A stretch of DNA of 64,000 nt from a virus: positions 1-64,000 of IMG/VR virus record IMGVR_UViG_3300046500_000236; one strand, written 5' to 3'. The notes under the pieces were generated by a model. It saw only the letters and a program-made list of their open reading frames with translations. It ran no database searches and was not told where the DNA came from. This document shows positions 22,094-62,891 of the stretch, piece by piece. The position numbers and the translations under genes are program-made. Positions within the stretch are counted from its first letter, which is position 1, and the number at the start of each line of letters is the position of its first letter.

Positions 22094-22130
22094 GACCAGC
22101 TTCCCTAAAGCGCTTGGCCATCATGATACA

Positions 22131-22196: not shown

Positions 22197-22234
22197 AAAA
22201 AAAGCCCCGCACCGTCGCCAGTGCAGGGCTTTTT
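22197..22234. terminator. bidirectional intrinsic terminator
   Basis: GCCCCGCAC/GTGCAGGGC stem flanked by A7 and T5. Confidence 0.65.
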
Positions 22235-22259
22235 CATAGCGTCCGTTATTCGTAACGCA

Positions 22260-22487: not shown

Positions 22488-22568
22488 GACAACTCCTTGT
22501 GTTGCGGTATGGCCGTTCCAGCATGGCCCGGCCGGGGTTCCTTTCTGTTCGTTATAGGTAACGCGGCG

Positions 22569-22799: not shown

Positions 22800-22816
22800 A
22801 GGGGGGTTCCTTTCCG

Positions 22817-23299
22817 TTAGTTACTATTGGCCGGCTGCGCATCCAGCTCAGCCCGGACAACTACGCCAGAGATAAAGCCGTAAAGCTGACCACAAGCGTC
22901 ATGAAAGCGAGCGCGCGCATCATCCACCGCCTTACACGCTGCCTCATGATCGGCAGGGCCAGCCCTTAGAATGCGCAGGGCTTCGTCCAACTCCTGCTGA
23001 GCGGCTGCCACCGGCCCCAGCCCGAACCTGAGAGTACTTACGTCGATTTTCGGCATAACGGGAGCTCTCTTGGGTACGGTTAAGCAGTCGTCACAGAGAA
23101 ACAGCCGTTCGTTGCGACTGCGCGGGTCTAGCCCGTGCGGTCCGCAGTTCATGGTGCATTGCTTTGTCGACGGGTCGAAAGCTGCCAGGGCGACCGGATC
23201 GGCGCGGGTCCATTCAATCTCTCTCTCAGGCACTGCCTGCGCTGCTTTCAATCTCCGCGCCTTGATGGTCATGCGGTCGGTTCCTTTAACAATCGTCAA
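22817..23299 (-). CDS. hypothetical protein: Cys-rich N-terminal half plus MPKIDV-family C-terminal half
   Basis: 160 aa. The internal 'MPKIDVSTLRFG' mirrors 'MPKIDVESLRPG' of 22569-22799. Confidence 0.55.
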   Translation of the reverse strand: MTIVKGTDRMTIKARRLKAAQAVPEREIEWTRADPVALAAFDPSTKQCTMNCGPHGLDPRSRNERLFLCDDCLTVPKRAPVMPKIDVSTLRFGLGPVAAAQQELDEALRILRAGPADHEAACKAVDDARARFHDACGQLYGFISGVVVRAELDAQPANSN

Positions 23300-23519
23300 T
23301 ATCGAGGCCCAACGCCTCGCACTGCCACAACATGTATTCGGTAGTGATCATGCTAATCACGGCCTGAACCGGGGCGTTCAGCAGCCCCGAGCGCTGCACT
23401 CGGCTCGACAGCCAGTCCAGTAGCTCGGCGCGCCCGGACAGGCACGGACCGAATTGTTGCTCCAGGGCATCGGCGAAACGCTCCAGCTGTTCGTGTGAGG
23501 GGTCGTGTTCAGCAGTCAT
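23286..23519 (-). CDS. hypothetical protein
   Basis: 77-aa ORF. Confidence 0.5.
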   Translation of the reverse strand: MTAEHDPSHEQLERFADALEQQFGPCLSGRAELLDWLSSRVQRSGLLNAPVQAVISMITTEYMLWQCEALGLDIDDC

Positions 23520-23537
23520 GAGAGCAGGCTCCTTGCA

Positions 23538-23936
23538 CTACAGGTGGAAGGCCGACACCAGCACTGCGTCAACTTCACAATAATCTTCGTAGGGCAGAGC
23601 TTGGGCAGCTGACAGCCCCTGCAGGAAACCGCGCAAGCGCTCGATACCGATCCGCCCGGTGTCTGCATCTTCTGCGTAATCTGCCAACGTTTCGAGCGCG
23701 GATGGGTGATTCGATAACGCGGCGGCCACCTGAGCGAACACCTTGCGCAACGCTTCAACCTTGGCGGCATTGAGTTCGTCGCTGACGCTCTGACGCAGCG
23801 GGCCGGCCGCGATTGGGAAGTCGTCGGCCGTTATTTTGCCCGACTTAATTCCATCGATAGCCCGATCAAACGCAGCGTTCAAACTAACCTCATCACTTGC
23901 GAACTCGAGCAGCTTACGCATCTTCTCTCTGTCCAT
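23538..23936 (-). CDS. hypothetical protein, first gene of a minus-strand operon
   Basis: 132-aa ORF divergent from the 24005 gene. Confidence 0.6.
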   Translation of the reverse strand: MDREKMRKLLEFASDEVSLNAAFDRAIDGIKSGKITADDFPIAAGPLRQSVSDELNAAKVEALRKVFAQVAAALSNHPSALETLADYAEDADTGRIGIERLRGFLQGLSAAQALPYEDYCEVDAVLVSAFHL

Positions 23937-23977
23937 CGATCTGGCTCCTGTGGCTAAGCGGGTAATACGCCGACATA

Positions 23978-23993
23978 CTGTTTATTTGTACAG
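23978..23993. promoter_or_regulatory. LexA (SOS) box CTGT-N8-ACAG
   Basis: taCTGTTTATTTGTACAGct is a perfect CTGT-N8-ACAG with an AT-rich spacer. It lies in the 68-bp divergent intergenic region, 12 bp before the 24005 ATG. Confidence 0.75.
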
Positions 23994-24004
23994 CTGGTAT
24001 AGCC

Positions 24005-24253
24005 ATGTCCAAACTTCCCAAGTTCACCCCGCTTACCCCAGAGGAACTGCGCTCATTGTGGGCACGGCATCCAGATCCCGAGATTCGCCGCTTGGTGCTT
24101 GAAGTCGTGCGCTACCGCGACGTGATCTGTGAAACTGACAAGCTTTTTCAGACCATTCATCAAACATGGCGTGACATCAATGGCGGACACCTGGTCGCCA
24201 TTCAGCTCCTAAGCGTCCTGCTCAACAATGAGCGGGAACGACTGAGGTTTTGA
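24005..24253 (+). CDS. small protein under putative LexA control (antirepressor candidate)
   Basis: 82 aa. It is the only plus-strand gene within about 37 kb of minus-strand genes, and the SOS box overlaps its promoter region. Confidence 0.6.
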   Translation: MSKLPKFTPLTPEELRSLWARHPDPEIRRLVLEVVRYRDVICETDKLFQTIHQTWRDINGGHLVAIQLLSVLLNNERERLRF

Positions 24254-24598
24254 TCAGCGGCGCTTGTCGTGGTCGCGCAGGCTGTGGCGCACCACCCCCC
24301 AGACCTCGAACTCGTCGTTCTCCAGGATGTACCGCGGTGGATACTTCGGGTTTTCCGAGCGCATGACCAGCTCGCCCGCGTCGTAGTCCAGGCGCTTGCA
24401 CATCGGCTCACGGTTGATCACCGCAATGATGATATTGCCCTGAACGGGGTCCTTACCTTTGTCGACCACCAGCAGGTCACCGGAGAAGATCCCCGCGCCT
24501 TGCATGCTATCGCCCTCCACCCGCACCAGGTACGTCTGGGGCGCCCGGATGTTCATCAGCTCATCCAGCGATATAGGGACGGCCACGTCTTCAAGCAT
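24254..24598 (-). CDS. S24 peptidase, UmuD'-like (HumD-like), no DNA-binding or pro-segment
   Basis: 114 aa. 'GDSMQGAGIFSGDLLVVD' provides the Ser and 'CKRL' the Lys. The N-terminus starts roughly where processed UmuD' starts. Confidence 0.8.
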   Translation of the reverse strand: MLEDVAVPISLDELMNIRAPQTYLVRVEGDSMQGAGIFSGDLLVVDKGKDPVQGNIIIAVINREPMCKRLDYDAGELVMRSENPKYPPRYILENDEFEVWGVVRHSLRDHDKRR

Positions 24599-24609
24599 TG
24601 CCGTAAACC

Positions 24610-25098
24610 CTACTCAATAACGAGCGTATGAGAGCGATCGGCGCGGCTTTGAGCAACCACCGCTGTGATCACCGCCTCAAACAGGTTGCCGCGATGGATG
24701 TTCAGCACGCGCATAGCCTCGCCACGATCGGCGTAGTACTGGGCAGCCTGTTCAGGCGTAGGGTCTTGAAGTTCTTCAAACGCATCATTCACCCGGCAAA
24801 GCTCATTAGTGGCGCGTTGGATTCCAGTAATTGATGGCGCCAGCGGCTCTACAGGTATGACGCTCTCAGCTGCCCGCGGCGTCTCCAAGTGCATCAATAC
24901 CTTGCCCGCAGCGGATTCGAGCAGATGCGCGACGTTGGGGTCAGGGACCAGCGCGCGGCACTCAGTCGGGCCCAGGCGGCGCAGGCCTTCGATCAGGGCC
25001 TCATGTTCGCCACGGTCGAGGTGCGTCATACCTGCATGGGCGATATCAGATGCACCAGCCAGGCGCACGGCGAGGGAAACGTGGGGCTTGCCGCTCAT
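24610..25098 (-). CDS. hypothetical protein
   Basis: 162-aa ORF. Confidence 0.6.
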   Translation of the reverse strand: MSGKPHVSLAVRLAGASDIAHAGMTHLDRGEHEALIEGLRRLGPTECRALVPDPNVAHLLESAAGKVLMHLETPRAAESVIPVEPLAPSITGIQRATNELCRVNDAFEELQDPTPEQAAQYYADRGEAMRVLNIHRGNLFEAVITAVVAQSRADRSHTLVIE

Positions 25099-25109
25099 GG
25101 GGTAGATTC

Positions 25110-25328
25110 CTAATCGCGCTTGATGGTCGTGGTGAAGGATATGTAGTTCACCGGGAAGGTGAGCGTAATTGGCGGCGCCTCACGCTCGGGCTTGTTCAGC
25201 GCTTCCATGGCCACACTGGTGATCACGCCGTCGATGTGCTGTGCCATAGCGGCTACCAGTCGGTCGTGGTCGAACTCGACATGGCCAATTGAGCCCACGT
25301 TAGGCTTGTTGCGTGGCGTATCGGACAT
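25110..25328 (-). CDS. hypothetical protein
   Basis: 72-aa ORF. Confidence 0.5.
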   Translation of the reverse strand: MSDTPRNKPNVGSIGHVEFDHDRLVAAMAQHIDGVITSVAMEALNKPEREAPPITLTFPVNYISFTTTIKRD

Positions 25329-25336
25329 TTCAATTC

Positions 25337-25624
25337 CTACTGTTTTGTGCCGTAGTATCCGTTGCTCAAGAGGCGGAGTACCGACGATTCTTCCGGCTGA
25401 TATGTGGGCACTTCCATTGCGGCCTTAACGGCCTTATCCAGACGCCCGTATGTCTCATTGCTGATTAGGCCATTCTCCAGCAGCGCCCGCATGTAGCCGT
25501 TCGCCTCGGAACGGCAGTTCGCCCACTGGCTTGAATCGGGGTGAAAGTGCCGCATGAGCCGCGTCATATTGGCTAGCTCTTGGGTAACCCGCTCTTGCAC
25601 TTCATTGCTGTCGGCTTCAAGCAT
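25337..25624 (-). CDS. hypothetical protein
   Basis: Start 'MLEADSNEVQERV' at 25624. The longer ORF-track form overlaps the upstream gene. Confidence 0.55.
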   Translation of the reverse strand: MLEADSNEVQERVTQELANMTRLMRHFHPDSSQWANCRSEANGYMRALLENGLISNETYGRLDKAVKAAMEVPTYQPEESSVLRLLSNGYYGTKQ

Positions 25625-25961
25625 TGGCTTGCTCTTTTGATTCGTGTTCAACGGCAGCGAGACCAGCCAGCTGGCCAGCCTTCCACTGCTCTGCCTCGGG
25701 CGTGGTGCTGTCATGCGGACAGGGGGCATGGCTGCCGCTATAGGCGTCATAGAAACCGTTCTCGTACGGGCCAGGGGCGTTCTCGCAGGCATAGCAAATC
25801 CCCATGTCAGTGATCCCCATGGAGCCGCAGCACGGGCAGCGCATTTCTCGTTGCTGCGCCTGCACGTATTTGTCATAGCAGGGTTCGCACAGATAGGTTT
25901 CAGCGGTTTCAACCACGCGCCCCTCGTACCCGCAGGCGCTGCACTGATGGATCATGGTCAT
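25617..25961 (-). CDS. zinc-ribbon protein
   Basis: 114 aa with 'CSACG...CEPC...CPCCG...CYAC'. Confidence 0.6.
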   Translation of the reverse strand: MTMIHQCSACGYEGRVVETAETYLCEPCYDKYVQAQQREMRCPCCGSMGITDMGICYACENAPGPYENGFYDAYSGSHAPCPHDSTTPEAEQWKAGQLAGLAAVEHESKEQANA

Positions 25962-25973
25962 CGGTTGGGTTCC

Positions 25974-26213
25974 TTATTCGCCGATCGGCGTACGGTCAAA
26001 CATCGCTTCGGCCGCGGAGGCGTAACGCGCATCGGCCAGTTCGTTCAGTTCACGCTGTTCGCCGGCATCGATCACGCCCAGGCGCTCCAGTACCTCGGCA
26101 TGCTTGCGCAGGGCGCCGTGCTGGTATTCAGGGATATTCCCGGCCGCCTGATCATCCTCGGCATAGGCGTGCCACAGCGCCAGCTCCCGGGCTTTGATGT
26201 CGTTGTTATCCAT
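25974..26213 (-). CDS. hypothetical protein
   Basis: 79-aa ORF. Confidence 0.55.
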   Translation of the reverse strand: MDNNDIKARELALWHAYAEDDQAAGNIPEYQHGALRKHAEVLERLGVIDAGEQRELNELADARYASAAEAMFDRTPIGE

Positions 26214-26250
26214 AAGCGGTCACCCATGTGAGGTTTGTTTACACAGCCGA

Positions 26251-26300
26251 GCTATCAAGCGCTATCTCTAGATATCGAAAAGATATCTCCGGATATCCAG
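26251..26300. repeat. iteron array (5 units GCTATC/GATATC, 10-11 bp phase)
   Basis: GCTATCAAGC GCTATCTCTA GATATCGAAAA GATATCTCCG GATATCCAGA, immediately downstream of higA. Confidence 0.7.
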
Positions 26301-26307
26301 AGCCCCC

Positions 26308-26982
26308 TTAACCTTTGAGAGGGGTAGGCTTTGCTGGTCTTTTTCTAGACGAGGCGGCCTGCTTATTGTCGTCATGCACCGTAAGGATGAATGGAGCAGG
26401 CACGGGCCGCAGTGCAGGCGAACCGATGAACTCCAAGTTTTCGATGTTCACATGTCGGCTGAATCTGACGCCGCTGCCGCCGCCCCCGATGATCGTCACA
26501 TTAATTAAGTCGGAGGACGTGGGCTCAGTTTGAACAAAAGCCTTGGGGTCCATGTGGAACCGTTCGGCAAGGGCAAAGGCCATCTTGTGGCTGATAGTGA
26601 CTTTGCCATTCAGCACTTTAGACACCGCTGTTTTGTCGCCGATTTCTGGCAGATCCGAACCGGTAAGGCCCAACGTATCCATCAGATCCTTGAGCAGCTG
26701 GACAGGCGTGGCTCGCGCCTTTGCCTCAGTATTGAACGCCTCAAACTGGGAGGACCCTTGTTCGTAAGCCAGAATCGCATCCTCCAACTCGACGAGAATG
26801 CGCTCCTCATACTTGTTCAGCTCGTGACCATCGGTTAGCTCGTCCAGCAGTACTGTCGCACGGGCGTAACCTTCTGCGTCCTTGATGCCGTCCACGAACT
26901 GGCCGCGTAGCTGCTCAAGCAGTACCTGCAGGTTTTCCAGCGCAGCAAGCACGCCTTGAGGGGTTTCGAGAGCCGTGTTCAT
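26308..26982 (-). CDS. higA: HigA-family antitoxin with about 70-aa C-terminal extension
   Basis: 'LGLTGSDLPEIGDKTAVSKVLNGKVTISHKMAFALAERFHMDPKAF' closely resembles E. coli HigA (YgjM). ATG at 26982 overlaps the higB stop (ATGA). Confidence 0.85.
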   Translation of the reverse strand: MNTALETPQGVLAALENLQVLLEQLRGQFVDGIKDAEGYARATVLLDELTDGHELNKYEERILVELEDAILAYEQGSSQFEAFNTEAKARATPVQLLKDLMDTLGLTGSDLPEIGDKTAVSKVLNGKVTISHKMAFALAERFHMDPKAFVQTEPTSSDLINVTIIGGGGSGVRFSRHVNIENLEFIGSPALRPVPAPFILTVHDDNKQAASSRKRPAKPTPLKG

Positions 26983-27311
26983 GGTTTTATGCCTCTTTTG
27001 TTGCTTGCGTACCACTCTGTCGCGGTGTCGTAGTCCGCATGGGTGTAGATGTGTTTCACGTAGACCTTTTGCCGAACGTAGTTGATGCCCGCGATCAGCC
27101 GCAGGTTGTTGCCGCCGATATCGATTGCTACCCACCCTTCAGCGGCGCGGTGCTTGAACAGGTCGATCGTATGGCCAAAGATCGACTGCAGATCGGTGTA
27201 GCTCGTGGGGGTTGCTGCTGTTAGCAGTCTGTGACATCGATCGAGCCCGCTCTTGTCATTTGGGTACAGCCGCGCAGCGTCGTCAAATCGCTGCTTAATC
27301 AATACGTCCAT
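26979..27311 (-). CDS. higB: HigB-family toxin (YgjN type)
   Basis: 110 aa. 'MDVLIKQRFDDAARLYP...IDIGGNNLRLIAGINYVRQKVYVKHIYTHADYD' parallels E. coli HigB. Confidence 0.85.
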   Translation of the reverse strand: MDVLIKQRFDDAARLYPNDKSGLDRCHRLLTAATPTSYTDLQSIFGHTIDLFKHRAAEGWVAIDIGGNNLRLIAGINYVRQKVYVKHIYTHADYDTATEWYASNKRGIKP

Positions 27312-27381
27312 GAGCGTTCCTAACGTTTAGATCGATAGTACGCCAGTTGTGTTTTTTTACAACTTCGACTGATCGTCGGTA

Positions 27382-27439
27382 GGATATCTTTGGCTATCCG
27401 AAGATACCTAAAGTTACTTTTAGGTATCTTGAGATAGCC
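27382..27439. repeat. iteron array (about 6 units GGATATC/GGCTATC/GGTATC, both orientations)
   Basis: GGATATCTTT GGCTATCCGAA GATACCTAAA GTTACTTTTA GGTATCTTGA GATAGCC, in the higB promoter region. Confidence 0.7.
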
Positions 27440-27455
27440 TTTTGGTGATGCAGCG

Positions 27456-27986
27456 TTACTGAACCCGCGCCAGCTCGAACTCCTCGATGTGTTTGACCAG
27501 CTCAGGGACGGCCGCAGCGATCAGCATCAGCGCCCCCACCTTGCGAGGGTGGCCACCGCATACGATACCCGTCACGTCCTGAACCTCGCGCGCGAGCTCC
27601 TTGATGTGGTGCAGCGGCTCCTGGCCATACGTGCGCACTGGGCCCAGCGGGTCGAACGTCTCCTGCAGGCGCTCAAGCTTGGCTTGCATCGAATGGATGC
27701 ACGTTTCCAGCACATGCCCAAGTCCTGCATCAGGGAAAACCGGAAACTCCTGATCGGAGAAGACATCGCTCAGTCCGATCACGGCTGTCTGCAACGCTTC
27801 CAGTTCCACCACCTGGGGGATGAGCTTCTTGCGCAGGTCGATGGCAAGCTGACGCATGCTCAAGGACGGATCGGCTGGCACTTTTGCCCGAGGCGTGGTC
27901 AGCAGCGCGTCGATTGCCATTTCGATCAGTTTCACCAGGTCGCTTTCGCTCTTAACTGGTTCGCTCGGTGGGGTTTGTTCAGCCAT
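27456..27986 (-). CDS. hypothetical protein
   Basis: Start 'MAEQTPPSEPVK' at 27986. The C-terminal 'KVGALMLIAAAVPELVKHIEEFE' is paralogous to the next ORF. Confidence 0.6.
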   Translation of the reverse strand: MAEQTPPSEPVKSESDLVKLIEMAIDALLTTPRAKVPADPSLSMRQLAIDLRKKLIPQVVELEALQTAVIGLSDVFSDQEFPVFPDAGLGHVLETCIHSMQAKLERLQETFDPLGPVRTYGQEPLHHIKELAREVQDVTGIVCGGHPRKVGALMLIAAAVPELVKHIEEFELARVQ

Positions 27987-28812
27987 GTTCACGCTCCAGT
28001 TGTTCAATGCGGGCCACCAGGTCAGGAACGGCGGTGGCGCAGGCAAGCAAGGCACCGACTTTGTCAGCCGGACCGCTAAGGTTGATGCCATTGACGTATT
28101 CGATCGCCTTAGACAGCTCTTTCAGCTCCTCCAAGGTGCGTTCGTTGTAGAGGTGTGGGTCTTCGCTCTCCGGATCGGAGCCGGCAGCGCCATAGCGCAG
28201 CACCTCCCCGTATCCTTCATCATTGGTGATGGGCTCTTGCGCCACTACCAGGACCTGGCCATCAAACTCAAGGGCAGCGATGCCGCCCTCAAGAAGCCAT
28301 TCCAGGTATATCTGCCCTTCGTCGCCGACACGCGATACCGCAACAGCCTCGACGGTGATAGGGCGCTGGATCTGAGGCACCAGCGAATCAGCGGGCTGCT
28401 CAGCATCCATTCGATAGGATTCACTCAACTCCTTGCGCAAAGAGCCGATCAGGTGCTTCTGCATTTCGATTGAGGTTTGCAATCGGCCTGCATTGGCGTC
28501 CGCGATGGCAGCTCTTGCGTGCCACGCCTCCATGCCTGCCGTGTGCCCATCCAGTCGGCCGATCGCCTCGCCATCCTTGCGAAACGCCCAGTCGTTGAAC
28601 GCTTGTTGTTCTTTGTGGTTCAGCGCCCGGGCGGCTTTGTTTGGCTGCACAGGCTCGTTACAGGCTTCGGCAGCTGTTCGCTGGTGTTCGTCAAAGCGCC
28701 GCTGCGCCTCATCGTCACCCTGCAAGCATCCGCAGATGTACGGGTGGGCGTTGTGGTCGATATGGCATAGGCGATCAGGATACGGCTTGCTGCCAAGTAG
28801 TCCTTTTGTCAT
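27979..28812 (-). CDS. hypothetical protein
   Basis: 277 aa with C-terminal 'KVGALLACATAVPDLVARIEQLE'. Confidence 0.65.
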   Translation of the reverse strand: MTKGLLGSKPYPDRLCHIDHNAHPYICGCLQGDDEAQRRFDEHQRTAAEACNEPVQPNKAARALNHKEQQAFNDWAFRKDGEAIGRLDGHTAGMEAWHARAAIADANAGRLQTSIEMQKHLIGSLRKELSESYRMDAEQPADSLVPQIQRPITVEAVAVSRVGDEGQIYLEWLLEGGIAALEFDGQVLVVAQEPITNDEGYGEVLRYGAAGSDPESEDPHLYNERTLEELKELSKAIEYVNGINLSGPADKVGALLACATAVPDLVARIEQLEREHG

Positions 28813-29261
28813 TTGGCAATGTCTCCAGTGTCCGGGACGGGCTCATCCTCAATCATGGCGGCGGCCTCACGCCGAAGTCTCAGCAGGTGATCGTCATCTA
28901 AGAAACCACCGATGGTGACCTCGTGGAACTCACGTAGGAGACGGGTTTGCCTTGTCAGCTTGGCTTGCATGGCCAGAATGGATGGGTGCGGCTCAAGCGT
29001 GTCGGCATCAGGATCAAGGAGCGTGCTGTTACGATCGAGAAGCGCGAGCATGCCGAACGTCACGCGACCGATAGAACCTGGCTCGTTGATTTCCAGCAGA
29101 TGGCGCATCACTGCCTGGCACTGCTCCGGATCATCGATATCGAAGTACTCATCATCGTCGCCGATGTCTTGGGGCATGTAGCCCTTCTCGATTTCTTCAA
29201 TCAGACGTGCTGTCTGCTGAGCCAATTCCAGGTCGGTTTCACTGGCGCGGGCCATCTTCAT
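28809..29261 (-). CDS. hypothetical acidic protein
   Basis: 150-aa ORF, coupled. Confidence 0.6.
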   Translation of the reverse strand: MKMARASETDLELAQQTARLIEEIEKGYMPQDIGDDDEYFDIDDPEQCQAVMRHLLEINEPGSIGRVTFGMLALLDRNSTLLDPDADTLEPHPSILAMQAKLTRQTRLLREFHEVTIGGFLDDDHLLRLRREAAAMIEDEPVPDTGDIAK

Positions 29262-30010
29262 GATGTCTTCACCCCTGCCAGTGCGGTGTCGATGATGTCG
29301 ATCAGGTCGGCATTACCCACCGCCTCATCGTGCTGCGCCTCGACTTTAGCCGCTCGCAGCCCCTGTTCCAGCTGGGCAACTCGGCGATTTAAGGTCGTGA
29401 TGGCGTCGGTGACGTTGCCGTGCCCAAGGCCCTTGGCCAACGCCCACACCTCGTCATACATCTCAGCTTTATGGTCGCGCTTGGACAGCTGCAGCGAGAG
29501 CTCAGAGCACCAGAGTTTGGCCACTTCGGTGGCAAAGTCTGCGTACAGACCATCGCCTAGGCTGCTCATCTTCCATCCGCTCGCGACACTCTGTACCGCT
29601 TCCGCAAGGGTCATGGGCATGGATGGACTATTCGAGGTGAGGCGTTTCTCAACCTCATTGACCAGTGATTCGATACTGCAATAAGGGGTCCAATCCTGGC
29701 CGAGGAGGCGCGACAGCTTCTTTTCAACCTCGACTTTCAACCGATCCATCGTCCACTCCGACGAGTACCGCATAATCAGCGCGGGTACTGGGTCCAAGCC
29801 TTCAAAGGCGTAAACGCAAACGCCTACTCCCAGGGTCCGACGGTGATATACAACGCGCCGCATTGAGGTATTCGGGTCCATCTGATCAGTTGAAAACCCA
29901 CCAATGGGTGGGTCAGTGACGTGCTCAACCACGGCTGACGTTCCCGCCAGCACGCTTTTGGTTTGGCCATCGAATGGGCCGCCGACAAACAGCACCGTTT
30001 CGTATTTCAT
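29258..30010 (-). CDS. hypothetical protein
   Basis: 250-aa ORF, coupled. Confidence 0.65.
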   Translation of the reverse strand: MKYETVLFVGGPFDGQTKSVLAGTSAVVEHVTDPPIGGFSTDQMDPNTSMRRVVYHRRTLGVGVCVYAFEGLDPVPALIMRYSSEWTMDRLKVEVEKKLSRLLGQDWTPYCSIESLVNEVEKRLTSNSPSMPMTLAEAVQSVASGWKMSSLGDGLYADFATEVAKLWCSELSLQLSKRDHKAEMYDEVWALAKGLGHGNVTDAITTLNRRVAQLEQGLRAAKVEAQHDEAVGNADLIDIIDTALAGVKTS

Positions 30011-30318
30011 GCCAGCACCTGCTCAGGACGAAACACGCAGCTGTTGTCGTCGTACTCAGCAATGACCACGCCGTCATCGTTGAAATACTTTGTGCGCCAG
30101 GTCGGGTGGACGTTTCGGGGTTTCTTCCCGTGCGTCTTCTGGTCATCAAAGGTGACGGCAAGGTTGCCGTTCATCGTGCCCGTAATGGTGCCCCGCTTTC
30201 CGTCCATTTCGACCTTCATGCCGAGGCGAGGGAAATCAAGGCCGCGCACGCGCTTCATTTCTTCGATGAAGGCTTGTTGCTGGGCTGGGGATGCTGTGTT
30301 GGGGGTGGTCATGATCAA
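30007..30318 (-). CDS. hypothetical protein
   Basis: 103-aa ORF, coupled. Confidence 0.6.
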   Translation of the reverse strand: MIMTTPNTASPAQQQAFIEEMKRVRGLDFPRLGMKVEMDGKRGTITGTMNGNLAVTFDDQKTHGKKPRNVHPTWRTKYFNDDGVVIAEYDDNSCVFRPEQVLA

Positions 30319-31187
30319 TAGTCCGGGCAGGTTTCGTCGAATTTGGCCCCAGCTGGGGATGGTTTGCCGTGGCGGCGCAGGTACTCAATTGCAGGGAGGA
30401 CGGGATATACCCATGCAAGCCCAGTTTCAAGATGGTGGTCTTTTGCCCACTGTTCAGTTGAGGCATTCAGCTCGCACCAGCCTTTACGCGGCATGTAGCC
30501 GCAAAAGAACAATTCGTCATCCAGCGCGTTGATCCGAAAATGGGTGGCCGTCGGGTGGCGATCGGCGATTTCGGTCAAGCGCGTCAGGTGCTCGGTGTAC
30601 AAGTTGCCTGGCAGCGAATGCCCGCCAAAGGCAATAGGCGGCAACATGTTGCGCACCTTGGTCATTCTCTCTAGGAACTTGTAGGTCTTGATCGGTCCCT
30701 CATCGTCCGGGGTCATCGGCGCCAGGCTGACCGCGCGGCGTGATCGCTCACGCGGTGCGGCGCTGGGCGCAGGCGCAACACGAGGACGTGCGACAAGTTT
30801 GGGATTGAGCGGCGCCGGATCTGGGTCAGGGGCTGGGGTTTCAGGAACAGGATCGGGCTCAGGTGTCGGCGCCGAAACGGTTTGAGGTGAGGCGCTGGCC
30901 ACCGGGGCAGCACTGGCGACTAACTGGGGGCGAGTACGCGGGCGCAACAGCTCGGGCCGCTCCTCCAGTTCCATAAAATCGGGCTCGTCGCCGTAGCGAA
31001 TGCTGCCGACTATGCGGCCCCGGTCGCTTTGATCCTCTACCCACGCCAGCAGTGCCAGCCCCCGGGCCACCAGCAGGTTCAGCTGGTTGTGACCACAGCG
31101 CGCCATCAGCTCATCAAGCCGGTGCTTACTGTCGTCACCCATGGAAAAGTTGAAGTCATGCCGTTTCGGCTTCTCGGCGGCGTTCAT
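30315..31187 (-). CDS. hypothetical protein, RHH-like N-terminus, Pro/Ala-rich linker
   Basis: 290 aa. 'FNFSMGDDSKHRLDELMARCGHNQLNLLVARGLALL' looks CopG-like. First gene after the GC-rich palindrome. Confidence 0.6.
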   Translation of the reverse strand: MNAAEKPKRHDFNFSMGDDSKHRLDELMARCGHNQLNLLVARGLALLAWVEDQSDRGRIVGSIRYGDEPDFMELEERPELLRPRTRPQLVASAAPVASASPQTVSAPTPEPDPVPETPAPDPDPAPLNPKLVARPRVAPAPSAAPRERSRRAVSLAPMTPDDEGPIKTYKFLERMTKVRNMLPPIAFGGHSLPGNLYTEHLTRLTEIADRHPTATHFRINALDDELFFCGYMPRKGWCELNASTEQWAKDHHLETGLAWVYPVLPAIEYLRRHGKPSPAGAKFDETCPDY

Positions 31188-31282
31188 CGCGCCCCCTTAC
31201 CAGCACAGGCGGCCGGCGAATCGATTGGGTGTGTGTACATGGTGTTTCCTGTATCTGGCTGATTGCCCGGCCATAATTACAT

Positions 31283-31326
31283 GAACGCGCCAACGCGCCA
31301 ACGTGTTTTGGCGCGTTCGCGCGTTC
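31283..31326. repeat. GC-rich imperfect palindrome (class B element)
   Basis: GAACGCGCCAACGCGCC-aacgtgtttt-GGCGCGTTCGCGCGTTC: 17-bp arms with 1 mismatch. Flanking AT-rich arms extend the dyad to about 31265-31358. Confidence 0.7.
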
Positions 31327-31389
31327 GCGCCTTTGTTAATGATTATTATGGCTCGGGCATAACGGCCGGCAAGCCAGGCTTTGCGCGGC

Positions 31390-31809
31390 CTACGTCGTAC
31401 TCCCTACGTCAAAACCCACAGCCTGGGGATCGACTTCAAAGAAACCCAGCTGCCCCTTGTATGGAACGAACGGCAGGGACTGAGGGTTGCGGAGCACAAA
31501 GCCTTTCTGGCCCATGTACCAAGGCGAATCACTCGTATCGACACTGTCGACCAGCTCCACAGACCCAACGATGCCGCCGCACCACTGCTGACGCATTTCC
31601 TGCGACGTGGGGAAGTCACGCAGCAGCTGGATGTCGGCGGCACGCATGGCAAACTCAAGGCCGTCGCAGTACTCGTCGCCAGTCATGCCCTTGGCGGCGT
31701 GCACCAGGAAGCGCCCGCGATATTTCGTGTGCCAGCTGCGATTCTCGATGTCTTTGCCACCGTGGACGATCAACCAGGCCCACGGCTGGCGAATGCTCAG
31801 CGTTTTCAT
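31390..31809 (-). CDS. ASCH domain protein
   Basis: 'MKTLSIRQPWAWLIVHGGKDIENRSW' is the canonical ASCH N-terminus. Confidence 0.7.
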   Translation of the reverse strand: MKTLSIRQPWAWLIVHGGKDIENRSWHTKYRGRFLVHAAKGMTGDEYCDGLEFAMRAADIQLLRDFPTSQEMRQQWCGGIVGSVELVDSVDTSDSPWYMGQKGFVLRNPQSLPFVPYKGQLGFFEVDPQAVGFDVGSTT

Positions 31810-32228
31810 GCTGCAGATCCTCGGATCGATCCATTACGGCGCTCGCGCAGTGGCGTGGCCGGCTTTGTGAAAGCCTGCTCAGGAGGAACCCCGAGACTCA
31901 AACGACGACGAATAGTCCCGGCCGATACCGGCGAATGCACCGCCAGTTCGTCGACCGTGCCCACTCGCCCGTCAACCTCATAGGTGGCGACAGCCGCCAT
32001 CTTCCTGTTCCGGATCAGCGCAGCCCGGCGCGCCGGTGAGCACTGGCCACGAGCCTCCCGGTACGCCTGATAATTAGCTGCCGACTTACCTGGTGCAGGC
32101 CACTTAACGTCGGGCATGTGCTCGAGGATCAGATTGAACTTCGGGCGGCTAATCCCGAGCGCCTGGTGGGTTTGAGTGCGCGACCAGTTACGGGCCGCGC
32201 AATCCCGGATGAATTCCTCTGTCGTCAT
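31806..32228 (-). CDS. hypothetical HTH protein
   Basis: 140 aa with 'WSRTQTHQALGISRPKFNLILEHM'. Confidence 0.55.
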   Translation of the reverse strand: MTTEEFIRDCAARNWSRTQTHQALGISRPKFNLILEHMPDVKWPAPGKSAANYQAYREARGQCSPARRAALIRNRKMAAVATYEVDGRVGTVDELAVHSPVSAGTIRRRLSLGVPPEQAFTKPATPLRERRNGSIRGSAA

Positions 32229-32542
32229 TGGAGCACCTTGGACCCGGGCATGGCGGTTTTCAGCTTTTCGAGCACGCGATCCAGCGTTTCCTCGGCATGC
32301 GTCGAGGTCGTGATGACCGTATCGCCGTGCAAAGCTTTCTCCAGCGAATCCAGCAGCAGCTCCTGACGCTCGGCGCGCGCCAGCTTTTCGTCGATCGCCT
32401 CGAGGATCCAGCTGTTCATCGAGCGACGTTCTTGCTTGGCCAGCTCCTCAACCTTGGAACGCTGGCCTTCTTCGTCGAAGCGGACCATGAATTTGTCAGC
32501 GGTGCGGGACTCGGAAACGGCTGCTTTGGTGGCGTTGCTCAT
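32225..32542 (-). CDS. Arc/RHH-type DNA-binding protein
   Basis: 'DKFMVRFDEEGQRSKVEELAKQERRSMNSWILEAIDEKL' matches the Arc-like pattern. Confidence 0.55.
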   Translation of the reverse strand: MSNATKAAVSESRTADKFMVRFDEEGQRSKVEELAKQERRSMNSWILEAIDEKLARAERQELLLDSLEKALHGDTVITTSTHAEETLDRVLEKLKTAMPGSKVLQ

Positions 32543-33219
32543 TGGGAACCATCCTGTTCAAACACTGAGAATTCGAGAACCCAAACCCACGGGTTGGATC
32601 TCCACATGTAAGGGGTGCCTTGCGACTCCCACAGCCAGCAATAAGCCTCGCGCGGCTCCTTGGTCTGCTTGTCGCGGTGGTCTTCTGAATCGAGAATCCA
32701 GTACTTGCCGGTGCGCTTGTCGTAGCAAATGCCTTCGGCTACAGCCTGGTCTTGGCTGATCTTCTGCAGCTGCTCAGCGCGCACCGAGGTGATCACCAGC
32801 GTCAGGCGGGAGTACTCCAACGGCATGGCGTCGGCGTCCTCCCAGCGTGGAGCAGTACCATTGGCCTTGCGTGCCTGGTAACTCGCCGGCTCGGCCTTGG
32901 CGTATTCGGCAATCCAATCGTGATCAGCCAGAAGGGAGGTCAAACCACCTTCGCGATTCCATGGCTCCTGAATGGCCACGATCGTTCCGGGCGGGTAGGG
33001 ACATTTCCACTGGGGCACGTCGCGGCCTGTACTGTGGTACTCACTCACGAGACCATCGACGAACCACAGGTGCGGGCGCCGGCAGTAGTCGCCGTTCACC
33101 ATGCCTACGCGGTCGTTGATCGGCTGAGGGGCAACCGCCACCCGGTGGGTCGACTTGCGACCCTCCTGGATGGCGTTGACCATGCTGGGGCTTAGCGCCA
33201 GCGCATGGGTGGCGATCAT
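32539..33219 (-). CDS. ASCH/PUA-like protein
   Basis: Start 'MIATHALALSPSMVNAIQEGRKSTHR' at 33219 (TAATG overlap). Ends 'NPWVWVLEFSV', as many phage ASCH proteins do. Confidence 0.5.
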   Translation of the reverse strand: MIATHALALSPSMVNAIQEGRKSTHRVAVAPQPINDRVGMVNGDYCRRPHLWFVDGLVSEYHSTGRDVPQWKCPYPPGTIVAIQEPWNREGGLTSLLADHDWIAEYAKAEPASYQARKANGTAPRWEDADAMPLEYSRLTLVITSVRAEQLQKISQDQAVAEGICYDKRTGKYWILDSEDHRDKQTKEPREAYCWLWESQGTPYMWRSNPWVWVLEFSVFEQDGSQ

Positions 33220-33608
33220 TACTCGGTGGCCTCCAGCTGCTTGGCGCGGTAGGCCTGAGCAGCCTCCTTGCTGGCCAGCTCGAAAAACGGGTACTCGTTG
33301 CCGTCCGGATCTGTCACCGTCAGGGTGTGGATCCGGAACAGGCCGCCCAGCGTCCAATTGCAGCCCTTGCCAGCGGCCTTGACCTCGGCAGTGGCCGAAC
33401 CCTTGCCAGTCCAGCGCCCCAAGCAGGAAAACCCGAACGATCCATTCAGATCGTCCATCGTCTCGCCCGCGCCGGCCTTGATGAGGTCGTGGCCGTTCTG
33501 CAGCGACAGGCAGGCAGGGCAGATCACCACGATATCTTCGCGCTGCTCGGCCTGAGCTTTGTATTCGGCCTGGAACTGCTCCAGGGTGATGGTGCGGCGC
33601 TCGATCAT
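33219..33608 (-). CDS. hypothetical protein (VVA0879-like by recall)
   Basis: 129 aa with 'VVICPACLSLQNGHDL'. Confidence 0.55.
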   Translation of the reverse strand: MIERRTITLEQFQAEYKAQAEQREDIVVICPACLSLQNGHDLIKAGAGETMDDLNGSFGFSCLGRWTGKGSATAEVKAAGKGCNWTLGGLFRIHTLTVTDPDGNEYPFFELASKEAAQAYRAKQLEATE

Positions 33609-59329: not shown

Positions 59330-59713
59330 TTACGCGGTGGCGCTTTCCGCGACCGGCGCCGGTGCGAAATCGTCGATCCGGTCGGCCAGAACGTTGGCCA
59401 ACAGGGTCATGGCGTCGTGCTGAATCTGCAGGTGCTGCTGTTTCAGGCTATCCAGACTCTGGAAACGATCGGATTCCAGGAACGCAGCGAGTTTCTGCAC
59501 ACGGTCATCGTTCTGCGCCCGCTCGGCCACAACACGGCGCTCGTGCGGTTGCAGATGGCCGGTGTGTCCCATCGCGACGTGAGTGGCTTCAAAATCCGCT
59601 TTCGGCTTCCAGGTGGTGGTGCCGTTTTCGGCCTTCACGGTGTAGCCGGCCTGGCCGTCCTGGGTGGTCTCCCATGCCAGCACCTGCTGGGTAGTTACAT
59701 ATTCCTGGGTCAT
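59330..59713 (-). CDS. hypothetical protein
   Basis: Start 'MTQEYVTTQQVLAWE' at 59713. Confidence 0.6.
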   Translation of the reverse strand: MTQEYVTTQQVLAWETTQDGQAGYTVKAENGTTTWKPKADFEATHVAMGHTGHLQPHERRVVAERAQNDDRVQKLAAFLESDRFQSLDSLKQQHLQIQHDAMTLLANVLADRIDDFAPAPVAESATA

Positions 59714-59744
59714 TGCGTCGATTCCTTGATTGGGTAAGGGTGTA

Positions 59745-60449
59745 TCAGGCTTGGGCTGGTTCAGGCTCAGCGGTTTCGGCGTGACGCACGAACACGTAAC
59801 GGCGCTTGAAGTGCTCAAGCGTCAGCAGCTCGGTGCGGTGTGCATTCACGCGCTCGATTTCCACATCCACGCCGTCGAATCCAGTGAGAAACCATTCGCG
59901 TTGCTGGTGCGGCAGGCAGAACTTCGGTGACTCGGTGAACACGTCTCCACGCCCCCAGTTCTCTGGACGGGTCATGTCGCGTTTCGTGGGTGCGAGTGGC
60001 GGCTCGGGCTCGGCGGGTGCGCTTGACCGACCCTGCTCTGTCACGGTTTCTGCGACCGAGGCGTAGGCAACGGCTCGGACCAGATCCGGTGCCGGCGCAG
60101 GCTCTGCCGCCAGCAGAATGCAACCCTGCGGCGCCGATATCGGCGAAGGCCCGGGGGCGCTCATCAGCGGCGCCAGTTGTGGGCTTGCCAGCAACTCAGC
60201 GAAGGACTGAATCGGTATCCGTTCAGCTGCTGGCAGTGCCTCGAAATACTCCTCCTGGCCACGCGGTTCGATCTCCACGCAGTCGATCCCGATCGGCTGC
60301 AGGACATCGCGCAGCTTGGTCAGCAACCCCGGGCGCTCAGCGCCACAGATCACCAGTACCTTTCGCGCCTGCGCTGCGTGCTGCTCCAGTCGGGTCAGTT
60401 CCTGTATCGCGGCCGCGGCCGCCCCGCTTCCCGTCTGCTCAACACTCAT
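59745..60449 (-). CDS. hypothetical protein
   Basis: Start 'MSVEQTGSGAAAAAIQEL' at 60449. Pro/Ala-rich middle. Confidence 0.6.
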   Translation of the reverse strand: MSVEQTGSGAAAAAIQELTRLEQHAAQARKVLVICGAERPGLLTKLRDVLQPIGIDCVEIEPRGQEEYFEALPAAERIPIQSFAELLASPQLAPLMSAPGPSPISAPQGCILLAAEPAPAPDLVRAVAYASVAETVTEQGRSSAPAEPEPPLAPTKRDMTRPENWGRGDVFTESPKFCLPHQQREWFLTGFDGVDVEIERVNAHRTELLTLEHFKRRYVFVRHAETAEPEPAQA

Positions 60450-60544: not shown

Positions 60545-60687
60545 GGATAGTTTGGGATTTCCCGAGATAGCTAAAAGCTACTCTCAGCTATCTCGAAGTA
60601 GCTCGGGCTACTAATGGATCCCTTCCGATAGCTGTGCGATAGCTGTGCGATAGCTGCGGGTATCTGCACATACCACGGGCTATCCGG
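60545..60687. repeat. iteron array downstream of the par cassette
   Basis: About 11 GATAGC/GCTATC/GCTAC units. They include interleaved inverted pairs (GAGATAGCT...AGCTATCTC) and four tandem 11-bp units CGATAGCTG(T/C)G x3 plus GGTATCTGCAC at 60626-60669. Confidence 0.75.
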
Positions 60688-60694
60688 CAGGCAC

Positions 60695-60721
60695 AAAAAA
60701 ACCCGCACGGGGCGGGCTTTT
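60695..60721 (-). terminator. intrinsic terminator after the par operon
   Basis: CCCGC/GCGGG stem flanked by A7 and T4. Confidence 0.6.
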
Positions 60722-60740
60722 CAGGGAACGGGCTGGGCGG

Positions 60741-61124
60741 CTACTTCTTCTTGCGATCAGCAGCCTCGAGCGCGTCGAGCGCCTTGCTCAACAGATCGCC
60801 CATCACGCGAATATTGCGTTCCTTGGCCATCTGGTAGAACCGATCGCTCTCGGCTTGGGTAGCCTTGATGTTCAGCTGCACTCGGGGCTCAGTGCTGCCA
60901 AATCGCGGGCGTTTGGCTTTTGTCGGTGCTGCAGGGCGAGCTTCACGAGAATGGAACCCGTTCTGATCGGCCACCTGGTTGGAAACCTCCTGCATTTTCT
61001 TGGCATCAACCGCGGGCGTCTCAGGTGCCTTGGGCTTGAATTGGGCAAGATTTGCAAATGGGCTTTCCGGCTGGACCTCGGGCTTTTTAGCGCCGGTGCT
61101 GGTCTCTCGGATGGGATCTGTCAC
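60741..61124 (-). CDS. small RHH centromere-binding protein candidate (ParG/omega-like)
   Basis: 127 aa. Disordered basic N-terminus. The C-terminal 'VQLNIKATQAESDRFYQMAKERNIRVMGDLLSKALDAL' fits strand-helix-helix. Coupled to parA (ATGA). Confidence 0.65.
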   Translation of the reverse strand: MTDPIRETSTGAKKPEVQPESPFANLAQFKPKAPETPAVDAKKMQEVSNQVADQNGFHSREARPAAPTKAKRPRFGSTEPRVQLNIKATQAESDRFYQMAKERNIRVMGDLLSKALDALEAADRKKK

Positions 61125-61861
61125 GCTACGGCCTCCTGGGTGGGCACTGACTGTGGATTCATGCGCTGCTGTGCTTTCTGAGCCTCATCCTGTAATCGGA
61201 TGATCACCTCGGCAGCCAACGCTTCGGCGTTCTCGATTGCGGTATCAATGCCTGAGACCTCGACCGGGTCCAGCTGCTCCAGTGGGCAGTTGAACTTGAA
61301 GATGGCCTTGAAGGCTTCGCGCGATTTGAGCTCGACCTCAAACATGGGCACCTGGAGCTCGTTGAGGTCATGGCGTAGACCTTTGGTAATACGTGACTCA
61401 TAGGCTGACGGAGTTTCGGTCAGCAGGATCGCGTAAGGCAGCTTGTAGTGAGGCACATGGCGCTGCACAGCAAGCTCCTGATCGATCACCAACTTGATGG
61501 CCTTGCTGGCCTCGTCAGCGTCAAGGTGAGAGCCACGCATAGGGATAATCACGAAATCCGTCTGCTGTAGTGCGTTTACCACGATCTTGGCCGCGGTTCC
61601 TTCCAGGTCTACCAGGACGAACTGGAACTTAGCGGCTGCATCCCGGATAACCTGGGCGATATTGTCCTCGGTCACATTCGGGATGATCGTCAATCCTTCG
61701 GGGCATTTCAGGTTCAGCAGACGGCGCCCCAACGGTGCGTTGGGGTCAGCGTCGAGCAAGGCGACCTGAGCGCCTTTCTTAACCAACGCGTACGCGAGGT
61801 TTGCCATAGTGGTGGTCTTGCCTGCGCCGCCTTTCGGACTCACCGCGGAAAGAGTTGGCAT
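61121..61861 (-). CDS. parA: ParA partition ATPase (small, type Ib)
   Basis: Deviant Walker A 'SPKGGAGKTTT', 'LLDADP' and 'VLVDLEG'. There is no N-terminal HTH when started at ATG 61861. Confidence 0.85.
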   Translation of the reverse strand: MPTLSAVSPKGGAGKTTTMANLAYALVKKGAQVALLDADPNAPLGRRLLNLKCPEGLTIIPNVTEDNIAQVIRDAAAKFQFVLVDLEGTAAKIVVNALQQTDFVIIPMRGSHLDADEASKAIKLVIDQELAVQRHVPHYKLPYAILLTETPSAYESRITKGLRHDLNELQVPMFEVELKSREAFKAIFKFNCPLEQLDPVEVSGIDTAIENAEALAAEVIIRLQDEAQKAQQRMNPQSVPTQEAVA

Positions 61862-61925
61862 TGAATGTCCCCTTACAAATGTCTGGCTGAAAGTTGTAGA
61901 TGACCGCAAGTATCGACGTTAGCAC

Positions 61926-62131
61926 GATATCTTGAGGTATCAAAAAGTTATCCTAGGATACTTGAAGATATCTTTTTGATAGCTCTAGATAGCCTTCGCT
62001 ACCTGTGGGGTAGTTTCGGGTATTTCTCTGCTAGCTCGGGATATCTTGGCGACAGCTTGGAAGTAGCTCGGCAATATCCGTGAGCTACCTACTAGATACT
62101 TTGGGCTATCTTTTGGTAGCTGTAGATATCC
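61926..62131. repeat. iteron array (about 20 units, 9-12 bp phase) upstream of parA
   Basis: GATATCTTGAG GTATCAAAAAG TTATCCTAG GATACTTGAA GATATCTTTTT GATAGCTCTA GATAGCCTTC GCTACC... ending GATATCC. Confidence 0.8.
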
Positions 62132-62141
62132 ATAAGGCCCT

Positions 62142-62163
62142 AAAAAGCCCGCGCTTGGCGGGC
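62142..62163 (-). terminator. intrinsic terminator upstream of the par promoter region
   Basis: GCCCGC/GCGGGC stem. A5 on the plus strand. Confidence 0.6.
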
Positions 62164-62170
62164 TTCTGAG

Positions 62171-62446
62171 TCAGCGCCTTGCAACCCACCCTATCGGCTC
62201 ACTGTCCTGATCGGAAAGCACATGGAACTGCTCCAGCGCGAGCCGCGGGTTATCAAAGCAGAATCGCTTGGCAAACCCGAACTCATCCACGTCGATGACA
62301 ATGGCTACGGTAAAGAGCAGCTTGATCATAGCGACGTAGGTGCCGTCTGTGAGTTGGCGCCAGCGAAGGTACTCATTGCGCGGATCGAGCAGCATGGCCT
62401 CGACAGCAGGGCGCTGGAATGTATTGGCTTCGAATACGGCAGCCAT
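62171..62446 (-). CDS. hypothetical protein
   Basis: 91-aa ORF. Confidence 0.55.
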   Translation of the reverse strand: MAAVFEANTFQRPAVEAMLLDPRNEYLRWRQLTDGTYVAMIKLLFTVAIVIDVDEFGFAKRFCFDNPRLALEQFHVLSDQDSEPIGWVARR

Positions 62447-62447
62447 A

Positions 62448-62891
62448 TCAGGCCGCCCGCTTGATGCGACGGGAAACGCTCCCGTCCTTGTTCAGGGTCG
62501 CTTGGTAGGCCTCGGCCTGCCGGGTCAGCTCCAGCAGCTCAGGACCGTCGAACGCCATTTCTACCCGCGTATTCGCCACCAGGTAGTTGGTGATTTCACG
62601 ACCCTCTCTGCGGCTGTATCCCACCACTCGGATGCGATGACCTTCAGTCTCAAGGCTGCGGATGGGGCTGGCGACCTTCTTGTTGCCGTCGCGAAACCAC
62701 ATCATGTTGCCAAGCTTGAGGTCGGCGGCAGGTTTGGTCAGCAGGGTGATGAAGTAGCGCCGTGCAGCTTCGCCGCGCTTGGTGTTTTTCATACCGGTAT
62801 GGTTACACGCGTGACAACGGGCAGCCTTGCCTTTGTCCTTGCAGTACGCGCACGGTTTCTTCTCAAAGTCAGGGGTATACGGGTTGCTCAT
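62448..62891 (-). CDS. hypothetical zinc-finger protein
   Basis: 147 aa with 'CAYCKDKGKAARCHAC'. Confidence 0.6.
   Translation of the reverse strand: MSNPYTPDFEKKPCAYCKDKGKAARCHACNHTGMKNTKRGEAARRYFITLLTKPAADLKLGNMMWFRDGNKKVASPIRSLETEGHRIRVVGYSRREGREITNYLVANTRVEMAFDGPELLELTRQAEAYQATLNKDGSVSRRIKRAA

Follow-up and report, generated by a model that had tools for sequence, protein, structure and literature searches.

A probable type Ib partition module with helically phased GNTANC arrays in a Pseudomonas phage-plasmid

How would a phage genome that carries a plasmid-type parA gene be kept in its host, and what would the long arrays of short repeats on both sides of this gene be for? The question arises from the first 64,000 nucleotides (nt) of the IMG/VR virus record IMGVR_UViG_3300046500_000236, the whole stretch of DNA analysed here and hereafter called the window, in which parA overlaps the gene of a putative ribbon-helix-helix (RHH) protein and in which two further arrays of the same repeat surround a higBA toxin-antitoxin (TA) operon. 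Relying on protein families, repeat statistics and comparisons with related replicons, we consider it probable (about 85%) that the parA locus is a type Ib partition module keeping a Pseudomonas phage-plasmid prophage inherited as a low-copy circular plasmid. Its features, in window coordinates and with protein lengths in amino acids (aa), are the following:

60546-60684, no strand: downstream par array, parC2-like, about 14 GNTANC units, including the tandem 11-bp unit CAGCTATCGCA (minus strand)
60695-60721, minus strand: intrinsic terminator of the parA-RHH operon, a hairpin (-14.6 kcal/mol) with seven U after it and A-run/U-run flanks
60741-61124, minus strand: gene for the putative centromere-binding protein, 127 aa, GTG start, 4-nt overlap with parA
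61121-61861, minus strand: parA, 246 aa from ATG, with the deviant Walker A motif SPKGGAGKTTT
61909-62130, no strand: upstream par array, parC1-like and likely operator, about 22 GNTANC units every 10-11 bp
62142-62163, minus strand: intrinsic terminator of the upstream gene (62171-62446), a hairpin of -17.9 kcal/mol followed by UUUUU

The product of parA was confirmed as the small ATPase with a deviant Walker A motif (KGGAGKTT, residues 9-16) announced by the original prediction, a model's reading of the bare sequence from which this work started. Its Pfam matches comprised VirC1 (the best, 3e-17), CbiA, AAA_31 and MipZ, its PHROG label was 'ParA-like partition protein', and the NCBIfam model 'ParA family partition ATPase' outscored the VirC1 model. 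The closest solved relatives in the PDB were ParF (4dzz) and ParA (5u1g) of TP228 (E ~4e-13), and the protein was 66-69% identical to the ParA of the plasmids pKF715C and DR133. Type Ib ATPases were recognised by a length of ~200-260 aa, a deviant Walker A motif and the absence of a helix-turn-helix (HTH) domain at the N-terminus; in the 246-aa protein of the window, the Pfam and NCBIfam ParA-family matches begin at residue 1-5 and the N-terminal HTH extension is absent, giving a ParA of type Ib size. The predicted coupling of the two genes stood as to the 4-nt overlap, which reads GTGA (the GTG start lying on the TGA stop of parA) and not ATGA as had been proposed.

The partner protein carries the N-terminal motifs PFAxLxxFKPK and NGFHSR and a predicted C-terminal RHH domain (strand VQLNIKAT, helices 90-102 and 105-126). 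In the AlphaFold2 monomer, these two helices follow the beta-prone VQLNIKAT segment, while the N-terminal half has low pLDDT and is predicted to be largely disordered. Across the family, the conserved elements are PFAxLxxFKPK, NGF(H/P)SR, a basic stretch, Q-x-N-I-K and ALDALE, with the strand residues Q83 and N85 nearly invariant. A Pfam search of 63 diverse homologues retrieved RHH_1 in 8 and RHH_10 in 6 of them (best E 7.7e-6, for RHH_1), and the best PDB profile match, weak at E 0.2 with two profiles, was the RHH protein ORF56 of pRN1, aligned over the strand-helix-helix. The disordered N-terminus and C-terminal RHH of the original prediction are thus upheld, transitive homology and helix prediction together supporting an RHH protein with a flexible N-terminal tail in a type Ib layout. 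Centromere-binding proteins of this type are known as RHH proteins with a flexible tail that contacts the ATPase, their RHH domain being usually invisible to sequence search (PMC3074162, PMC3130281). A tblastn of the RHH protein in the phage collection gave no match; a word-indexed search returned 13 relatives, and a HMMER profile scan built from these 13 reached 583 clusters at E ≤ 1e-3, including 137 at E ≤ 1e-10. The best 150 of the 583 clusters are all small (~70-200 aa, mostly 100-140), most of them aligned near full length. The NCBI name of this family is 'stability/partitioning determinant'; P. syringae loci of similar names have been tested (PMC6354349), and a link between them and the RHH family could not be made.

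The repeat unit of the arrays is a 6-bp palindromic core, G-N-T-A-N-C, often found as aGNTANCt, and its palindromic nature makes unit orientation meaningless. The phased array predicted upstream of parA is real (22 units, 61909-62130, ending 48 bp before the parA ATG), its unit being this hexamer and not a 7-mer in two orientations. The downstream array was likewise recovered (60546-60684), with 14 units where about 11 had been counted, and its supposed four tandem units are three perfect copies of CAGCTATCGCA plus one variant (60627-60664); all these unit counts are of in-register units, degenerate ones included. In all four arrays of the window, adjacent units lie nearly always 10 or 11 bp apart. 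The autocorrelation and matrix analyses suggested with the original prediction recovered both phasing and core: TA autocorrelation peaked at lags of ~10, 20-21, 30-31 and 40-41, which amounts to one unit per helical turn (period ~10.4 bp), and a symmetrised matrix of 47 units, again with the degenerate ones, gave G1 86%, T3 97%, A4 97% and C6 86%, with T never at position 2. Perfect GNTANC cores number 31 in the 564 bp of arrays (55 per kb) versus 2.5 per kb elsewhere, the densest 240 bp hold 14 perfect cores against at most 6 in 100 Markov-1 simulations, and an unbiased 6-mer count found GATATC, GATAGC, AGATAT and similar words enriched 50- to 170-fold. When at least four in-phase perfect cores were strictly demanded, arrays occurred at four places only in the 64 kb window (the two par flanks and the two higBA arrays) and at the two par flanks only in pKF715C; for the plasmid DR133, the same scan covered the first 50 kb of the record and detected no array.

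Comparison with L018, a 98%-identical relative (L numbers are our labels for the compared records), showed two copies of CAGCTATCGCA (about 10470-10490) versus three in the window, indicating that arrays change by whole units and keep their helical phase. Examined for purifying selection on core positions, the same two sequences differ in or beside the upstream array by 11 substitutions, none at TA and three at G1/C6 (one loss, two gains), a distribution that is not significant and was given no weight. Replication-origin iterons were considered as another identity for the repeats and rejected, as RepA lies ~33 kb from the par locus in pKF715C, as the units measure 6 bp versus 17-22 bp, and as the arrays follow parA and the RHH gene, not rep.

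This association extends far beyond the window. The triad of ParA, RHH protein and GNTANC array recurs in the phage-plasmids L001-L005, L010-L015 and L018, but also in P. syringae pPMA4326B, an Azotobacter megaplasmid, three Pseudomonas genome contigs, an alphaproteobacterial plasmid-like contig and L030. Reading or scanning the DNA upstream of parA at homologous loci revealed an array in every case, and at pPMA4326B and the other loci named after it the densest GNTANC cluster is directly upstream of parA. More distant members show less regular spacing with the same core and the same Q-x-N-I-K strand residues. RHH homologues were found in 23 PLSDB plasmids, 21 of them from Pseudomonas, mostly conjugative or mobilizable and from the P. 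syringae group. No stronger argument for binding of the GNTANC boxes by the RHH protein is available than the recurrence of the triad on otherwise unrelated replicons. The downstream array was also found by direct reading in pKF715C, L001-L003 and L018, and by scan in L012. In addition, the RHH gene of L003 (10108-10155), L004 (7342-7389) and L010 (~1567-1605) itself contains four to five GNTANC boxes in phase, in a stretch encoding ...KEIEKDI(D/N)QVA... via ATA and GTA codons that are probably rare in these GC-rich genomes. Two variants of the DR133 type have such intragenic boxes and no downstream array, and L003 has both.

In the direction of transcription, each terminator stands immediately ahead of an array. 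The cassette had been predicted to be insulated by its own terminators; both hairpins are real and lie on the minus strand, the first ends the upstream gene, and the second precedes the downstream array instead of following it. Both were missed by the automatic promoter and terminator scan and were confirmed by folding. The operon terminator and downstream array are arranged in the same way in L001-L003, and a second GC-rich hairpin with a T-run was seen by eye after the downstream array of L001 and L002. The terminators would shield the arrays from incoming transcription, and shielding of a protein-DNA complex fits a centromere. Furthermore, a 44-nt segment made of the last iteron and the terminator is repeated with 75% identity at the head of both arrays (60681-60724 and 62127-62170), suggesting that the upstream terminator-array unit was duplicated and gave rise to the downstream centromere. 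A candidate parA promoter, TTGATA-16 nt-TAACGT, was read by eye within the promoter-proximal iterons; its counterpart in L003 is TTGATA-16-TAATTT.

Replicon context points in the same direction. The window encodes the large and small terminases, a tail sheath, a PmgG-like head protein, a helicase, DNA methyltransferases, a tyrosine recombinase, the HigB toxin, an RdgC-like recombination-associated protein (PHROGs 'exonuclease recombination-associated'; labelled rdgC in pKF715C) and P1 Dar-like polyvalent proteins (LPD1; LPD3 + methyltransferase), whose neighbours in relatives carry DarA_N, ddrB-ParB and InPase domains. The original prediction had set the cassette among virion genes; the giant open reading frames (ORFs) that flank it do exist, and they are Dar-like polyvalent proteins of the P1 kind (LPD1, LPD3 + methyltransferase, DarA_N/ddrB-ParB) rather than established structural genes of the virion. 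The window is collinear, at 67-86% nucleotide identity, with pKF715C of P. putida KF715, a circular plasmid of 94,696 bp (PMC5313618) that also carries RepA, Ref nuclease, NinX and, within its phage genome, a mercury-resistance (mer) transposon of the Tn3 family. A complete circular plasmid of 80,993 bp, from P. fluorescens DR133, shows the same gene order in the par region. Typing places this plasmid and pKF715C among the non-mobilizable ones; IMG/VR also lists the two as viral genomes, and metagenomic relatives occupy contigs of 80-87 kb. Collinear relatives being complete circular plasmids with phage genes, the family (~81-95 kb) is one of phage-plasmids: phage morphogenesis genes and parA are seen in the window, the circular state in the relatives, and RepA in pKF715C. 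Its cultured members, pKF715C (NZ_AP015032.1) and CP048608.1, are filed simply as plasmids. A strictly integrated prophage, the state raised with the original prediction as an objection to partition, is not what the relatives display, two of them being complete circular plasmids; within the window, neither tRNA genes nor a host junction were found, and the region beside the recombinase/integrase gene is continuous with the plasmid map.

The par cassette behaves as a movable module within this family. Its position is shifted by one to two genes relative to pKF715C, such that a 147-aa gene (62448-62891) located upstream of parA in the window is found downstream of the RHH gene in pKF715C (window 62171-62891 compared with 19223-19660 of that plasmid), and YoeB/Phd and Gp49/HTH_37 TA pairs are inserted beside the cassette in L003. 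Searched by megablast, neither the phage nor the plasmid collection gave a match to the cassette. The contig L020 (Logan SRR26077544, 55 kb) is 100% identical to window positions 20979-33311, indicating that the same genome or clone is present in a public sequencing run. As a side observation, all family members examined share a conserved Sequestin/crAss001_48 protein (PF21825, 9e-15; 59330-59818, minus strand), placed between the LPD1 protein and the par cassette.

Taken as a partition locus, the cassette has its partner gene directly downstream of parA and a short-repeat array upstream, the overlap of the latter with the promoter being read by eye only. Type Ib centromere-binding proteins bind repeat arrays upstream of their operon and repress it (PMC3074162, PMC3130281, PMC5016525). 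We infer that RHH dimers would bind the GNTANC boxes by inserting their paired beta-strands (Q-L-N-I-K) into one major groove after another and, with one box per helical turn, would align on one face of the DNA, a cooperative partition complex forming on each array. The disordered tail, with its PFAxLxxFKPK and NGFHSR motifs, would contact nucleoid-bound ParA-ATP and stimulate the ATPase, K30 or R60 being the candidate stimulating residue, and the usual ParA gradient mechanism would then separate the plasmid copies. Since the upstream array overlaps the likely parA promoter, binding of the RHH protein there would also autoregulate the operon. The downstream array would serve as a second centromere, and the terminator directly before each array would stop transcription from stripping the partition complex.

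Several observations weigh against this interpretation. Queried alone, the RHH protein of the window gave nothing above threshold in Pfam, NCBIfam and PDB, and Foldseek searches with the full-length and C-terminal AlphaFold2 monomer models returned noise only, a failure that is expected of monomers because the RHH fold forms only as a dimer. Our literature search found no experimental work on any member of the RHH family. The candidate parA promoter within the array was not called by the automatic scan, which called no promoter at all. No downstream array was detected in the DR133-type variants, so that twin centromeres are not essential to the system. Finally, RepA would be found just past the window's left end, and it is from the relatives that the plasmid state of the present genome is deduced.

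Two other explanations of the cassette were weighed. The arrays might be bound by something else, for instance a phage regulator of the Arc-like or HTH type or a protein of the host, and have no more than their position in common with parA; the element does encode other small DNA-binding proteins (e.g. the Arc-like gene in L020 and pKF715C), but the arrays follow the ParA-RHH pair onto the otherwise unrelated P. syringae plasmids, Azotobacter megaplasmid and alphaproteobacterial contig, which makes this explanation very improbable. Least credible of all is a VirC1/VirC2-like accessory of DNA processing, or a system positioning another cargo, with the arrays as its loading site: VirC1 is the best Pfam match of ParA, VirC2 is also an RHH protein and some family members sit on conjugative plasmids, but the VirC1 model is itself of the ParA family and is outscored by the NCBIfam partition model, pKF715C and the DR133 plasmid are non-mobilizable, and the architecture is that of a type Ib par locus, with its coupled genes, its terminator shielding and its arrays lying over the promoter.

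Known partition systems provide close parallels to this type Ib module, each with its own differences. ParB of plasmid pB171 binds many short (6-bp) repeats and pairs centromeres. The par2 locus of that plasmid, ordered parC1-parA-parB-parC2 (PMC4270457), resembles the window locus in layout, with a small ParA and a small ParB, arrays on both sides and an upstream array doubling as operator; the window differs by its palindromic boxes strictly phased at 10-11 bp, its terminator-headed arrays and its phage-plasmid replicon. The original prediction had invoked R1 parC as precedent, which is pertinent as to phased 11-bp repeats, but R1 parC is type II and pB171 par2 is the better two-sided type Ib precedent. 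In R1 and pSK41, an RHH protein, ParR, likewise binds phased 10-/11-bp repeats flanking or overlapping the promoter (PMC5016525), but the motor is the actin-like ParM and not a Walker ATPase, and ParR has a C-terminal interaction domain and no N-terminal tail.

TP228 supplies the nearest solved relative of the ATPase (ParF) and, with ParG, an RHH protein whose flexible N-terminal tail contacts it. Its parH site is made of short degenerate boxes with AT-rich spacers and is cooperatively coated (PMC3130281). In contrast to the window, the ParG boxes are tetrameric, at shorter spacing and confined to a single upstream site, and the centromere-binding proteins share no significant similarity: hhalign against an approximate ParG sequence placed the RHH domains in the same register at an insignificant probability of ~1%, and PFAxLxxFKPK and NGFHSR are specific to the family described here. 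The delta/omega system of pSM19035 is alike in its RHH protein and in its arrays, which lie at several places of the replicon and double as operators, including that of a TA operon (PMC3074150, PMC5016525). However, omega binds contiguous 7-bp heptads and wraps straight DNA, whereas the window sites are phased on one face, and the extra arrays of the window, of putative regulatory role, are lineage-specific.

Among phages, the partition systems of P1 (ParAB-parS), N15 (SopAB, with dispersed centromeres) and mycobacteriophages (parABS) use a large HTH ParB (type Ia or chromosomal type). These temperate phages resemble the element of the window in living as low-copy plasmids by means of a ParA-type system (PMC7969092, PMC7157519), and the element shares P1-like modules, namely Dar-type polyvalent proteins, PmgG and Ref, with a tyrosine recombinase also counted among those of its family. 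It differs from them by its type Ib RHH system, borrowed from Pseudomonas plasmids.

A second question is raised by the higBA operon, surrounded by the two remaining arrays:

26251-26297, no strand: 5-unit extra array lying between the stop codon of higA and the gene that follows (25974-26213), some 40 bp upstream of this gene
26308-26982, minus strand: higA-like regulator, 224 aa, resembling the regulator that accompanies HigB on a plasmid of P. antarctica
26979-27311, minus strand: higB, Pfam HigB_toxin (PF09907, 2.5e-17)
27383-27438, no strand: 6-unit extra array, just upstream of the promoter of higBA and of a GTTGT-N7-ACAAC palindrome

Two such arrays had been predicted, and both were found to consist of the same GNTANC unit around a genuine HigB. 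Ten of their 11 units have a perfect core, and phasing, core and flank preferences match those of the par arrays. Both arrays are kept in relatives ~98-99% identical. At the matching place, pKF715C has no array and only a terminator, the whole array-higBA-array block being an insertion relative to this plasmid. Homologous higBA operons reside on plasmids of P. antarctica and P. hygromyciniae; arrays were checked in the P. antarctica plasmid only, and none surround the operon there. L023 has no array either, and an orphan higA-like gene abuts its homologue of the 79-aa gene. Missing from these three places, the arrays appear as a recent feature of the window lineage. A donor of the array-higBA-array block was sought via relatives of the higA-like and 79-aa genes in IMG/VR, and none with arrays was found. 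The higA-like gene of L023 (1779-2498) lacks the 90-aa C-terminal extension and is preceded, in place of higB, by an unrelated 91-aa ORF; its toxin may have been swapped, or its antitoxin may be an orphan.

The GTTGT-N(7-8)-ACAAC palindrome of the higBA promoter occurs in the window (27330-27375) and on the P. antarctica plasmid (L017, ~3310-3330). A similar GTTGT/ACAAC palindrome lies in the alphaproteobacterial contig L029 (~1625-1645), at an unrelated Gp49/HTH_37 TA pair, in an intergenic region shared with parA. This palindrome is likely an antitoxin (HigA) operator. In the region of small genes downstream of higBA, the gene at 24254-24598 (minus strand) encodes a 114-aa protein assigned to Peptidase_S24 (LexA/UmuD-like) by the precomputed Pfam annotation of the identical contig L020, a candidate SOS-responsive regulator.

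The higBA arrays would most simply be further sites for the same RHH protein. This protein may, in addition to its role in partition, be an omega-like global regulator or a multi-centromere organiser, the higBA arrays acting as operators of higBA and of the operon downstream of it, or as dispersed N15-like centromeres, an extension of the partition interpretation that we propose tentatively; the original prediction had already drawn both analogies, with omega and with N15. Consistent with it, these arrays share core, phasing and flanks with the par arrays, are the sole others in the 64 kb window, are intact in the ~98-99% identical relatives, and stand one just upstream of the higBA promoter/operator and the other ~40 bp upstream of the next gene. 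No strong terminators shield them, unlike the par arrays, so that operators fit better than centromeres. A precedent is omega: the promoters of delta and copS, and that of the omega-epsilon-zeta TA operon, are overlapped by the parS sites it binds (PMC3074150). A HigBA-type TA pair (Gp49/HTH_37) lies beside a par array in two relatives, sharing its intergenic region with parA in L029. However, pKF715C, L023 and the DR133 record in its first 50 kb lack the higBA arrays, which places these outside the core design of the family, the upstream higBA array ends before the predicted -35 box of an operon that has its own presumed HigA-type operator, and retention among genomes 98-99% identical is little informative.

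Alternatively, the higBA arrays may be evolutionary leftovers with no role of their own, higBA having been acquired by recombination from beside or inside a par array, or having inserted into one. The insertion of the whole block relative to pKF715C and the array-free higBA of P. antarctica are compatible with such an origin, as are the TA modules directly beside par arrays in L003 and L029, the displacement of the par cassette itself relative to pKF715C, which indicates that such modules move, and the gain and loss of 11-bp units by iteron arrays. We nevertheless hold it to be somewhat doubtful, since eleven near-perfect phased units, ten with a perfect core, exceed what decaying remnants would be expected to retain, and since no donor with such an arrangement was found. 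A more elaborate version of the regulatory hypothesis, which we regard as distinctly unlikely, would have the RHH protein recruited as a second-tier regulator that binds the arrays bracketing higBA, and possibly pairs them in the way of pB171 ParB with its centromeres, tying the TA operon and the downstream early-gene operon to the partition complex. If true, addiction and segregation would be jointly controlled in a phage, and the array-operon-array arrangement at two loci would form a looped, insulated expression domain and be no coincidence.

The kind of partition locus described here is well known, its sole unusual element being the lineage-specific arrays that bracket higBA, and the current understanding of partition is left unchanged. 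Our results rather provide a testable definition for a widespread and uncharacterised type Ib family (583 clusters), with GNTANC once per helical turn as its probable site, and lead to the recognition of a Pseudomonas phage-plasmid family (81-95 kb, with P1-like Dar modules) among records filed as ordinary plasmids. In annotation, the arrays can serve as centromere markers and as a basis for predicting the incompatibility of these phages with co-resident plasmids of the pPT23A type, and the arrays around higBA offer a small natural experiment on the spread of partition sites to other promoters.

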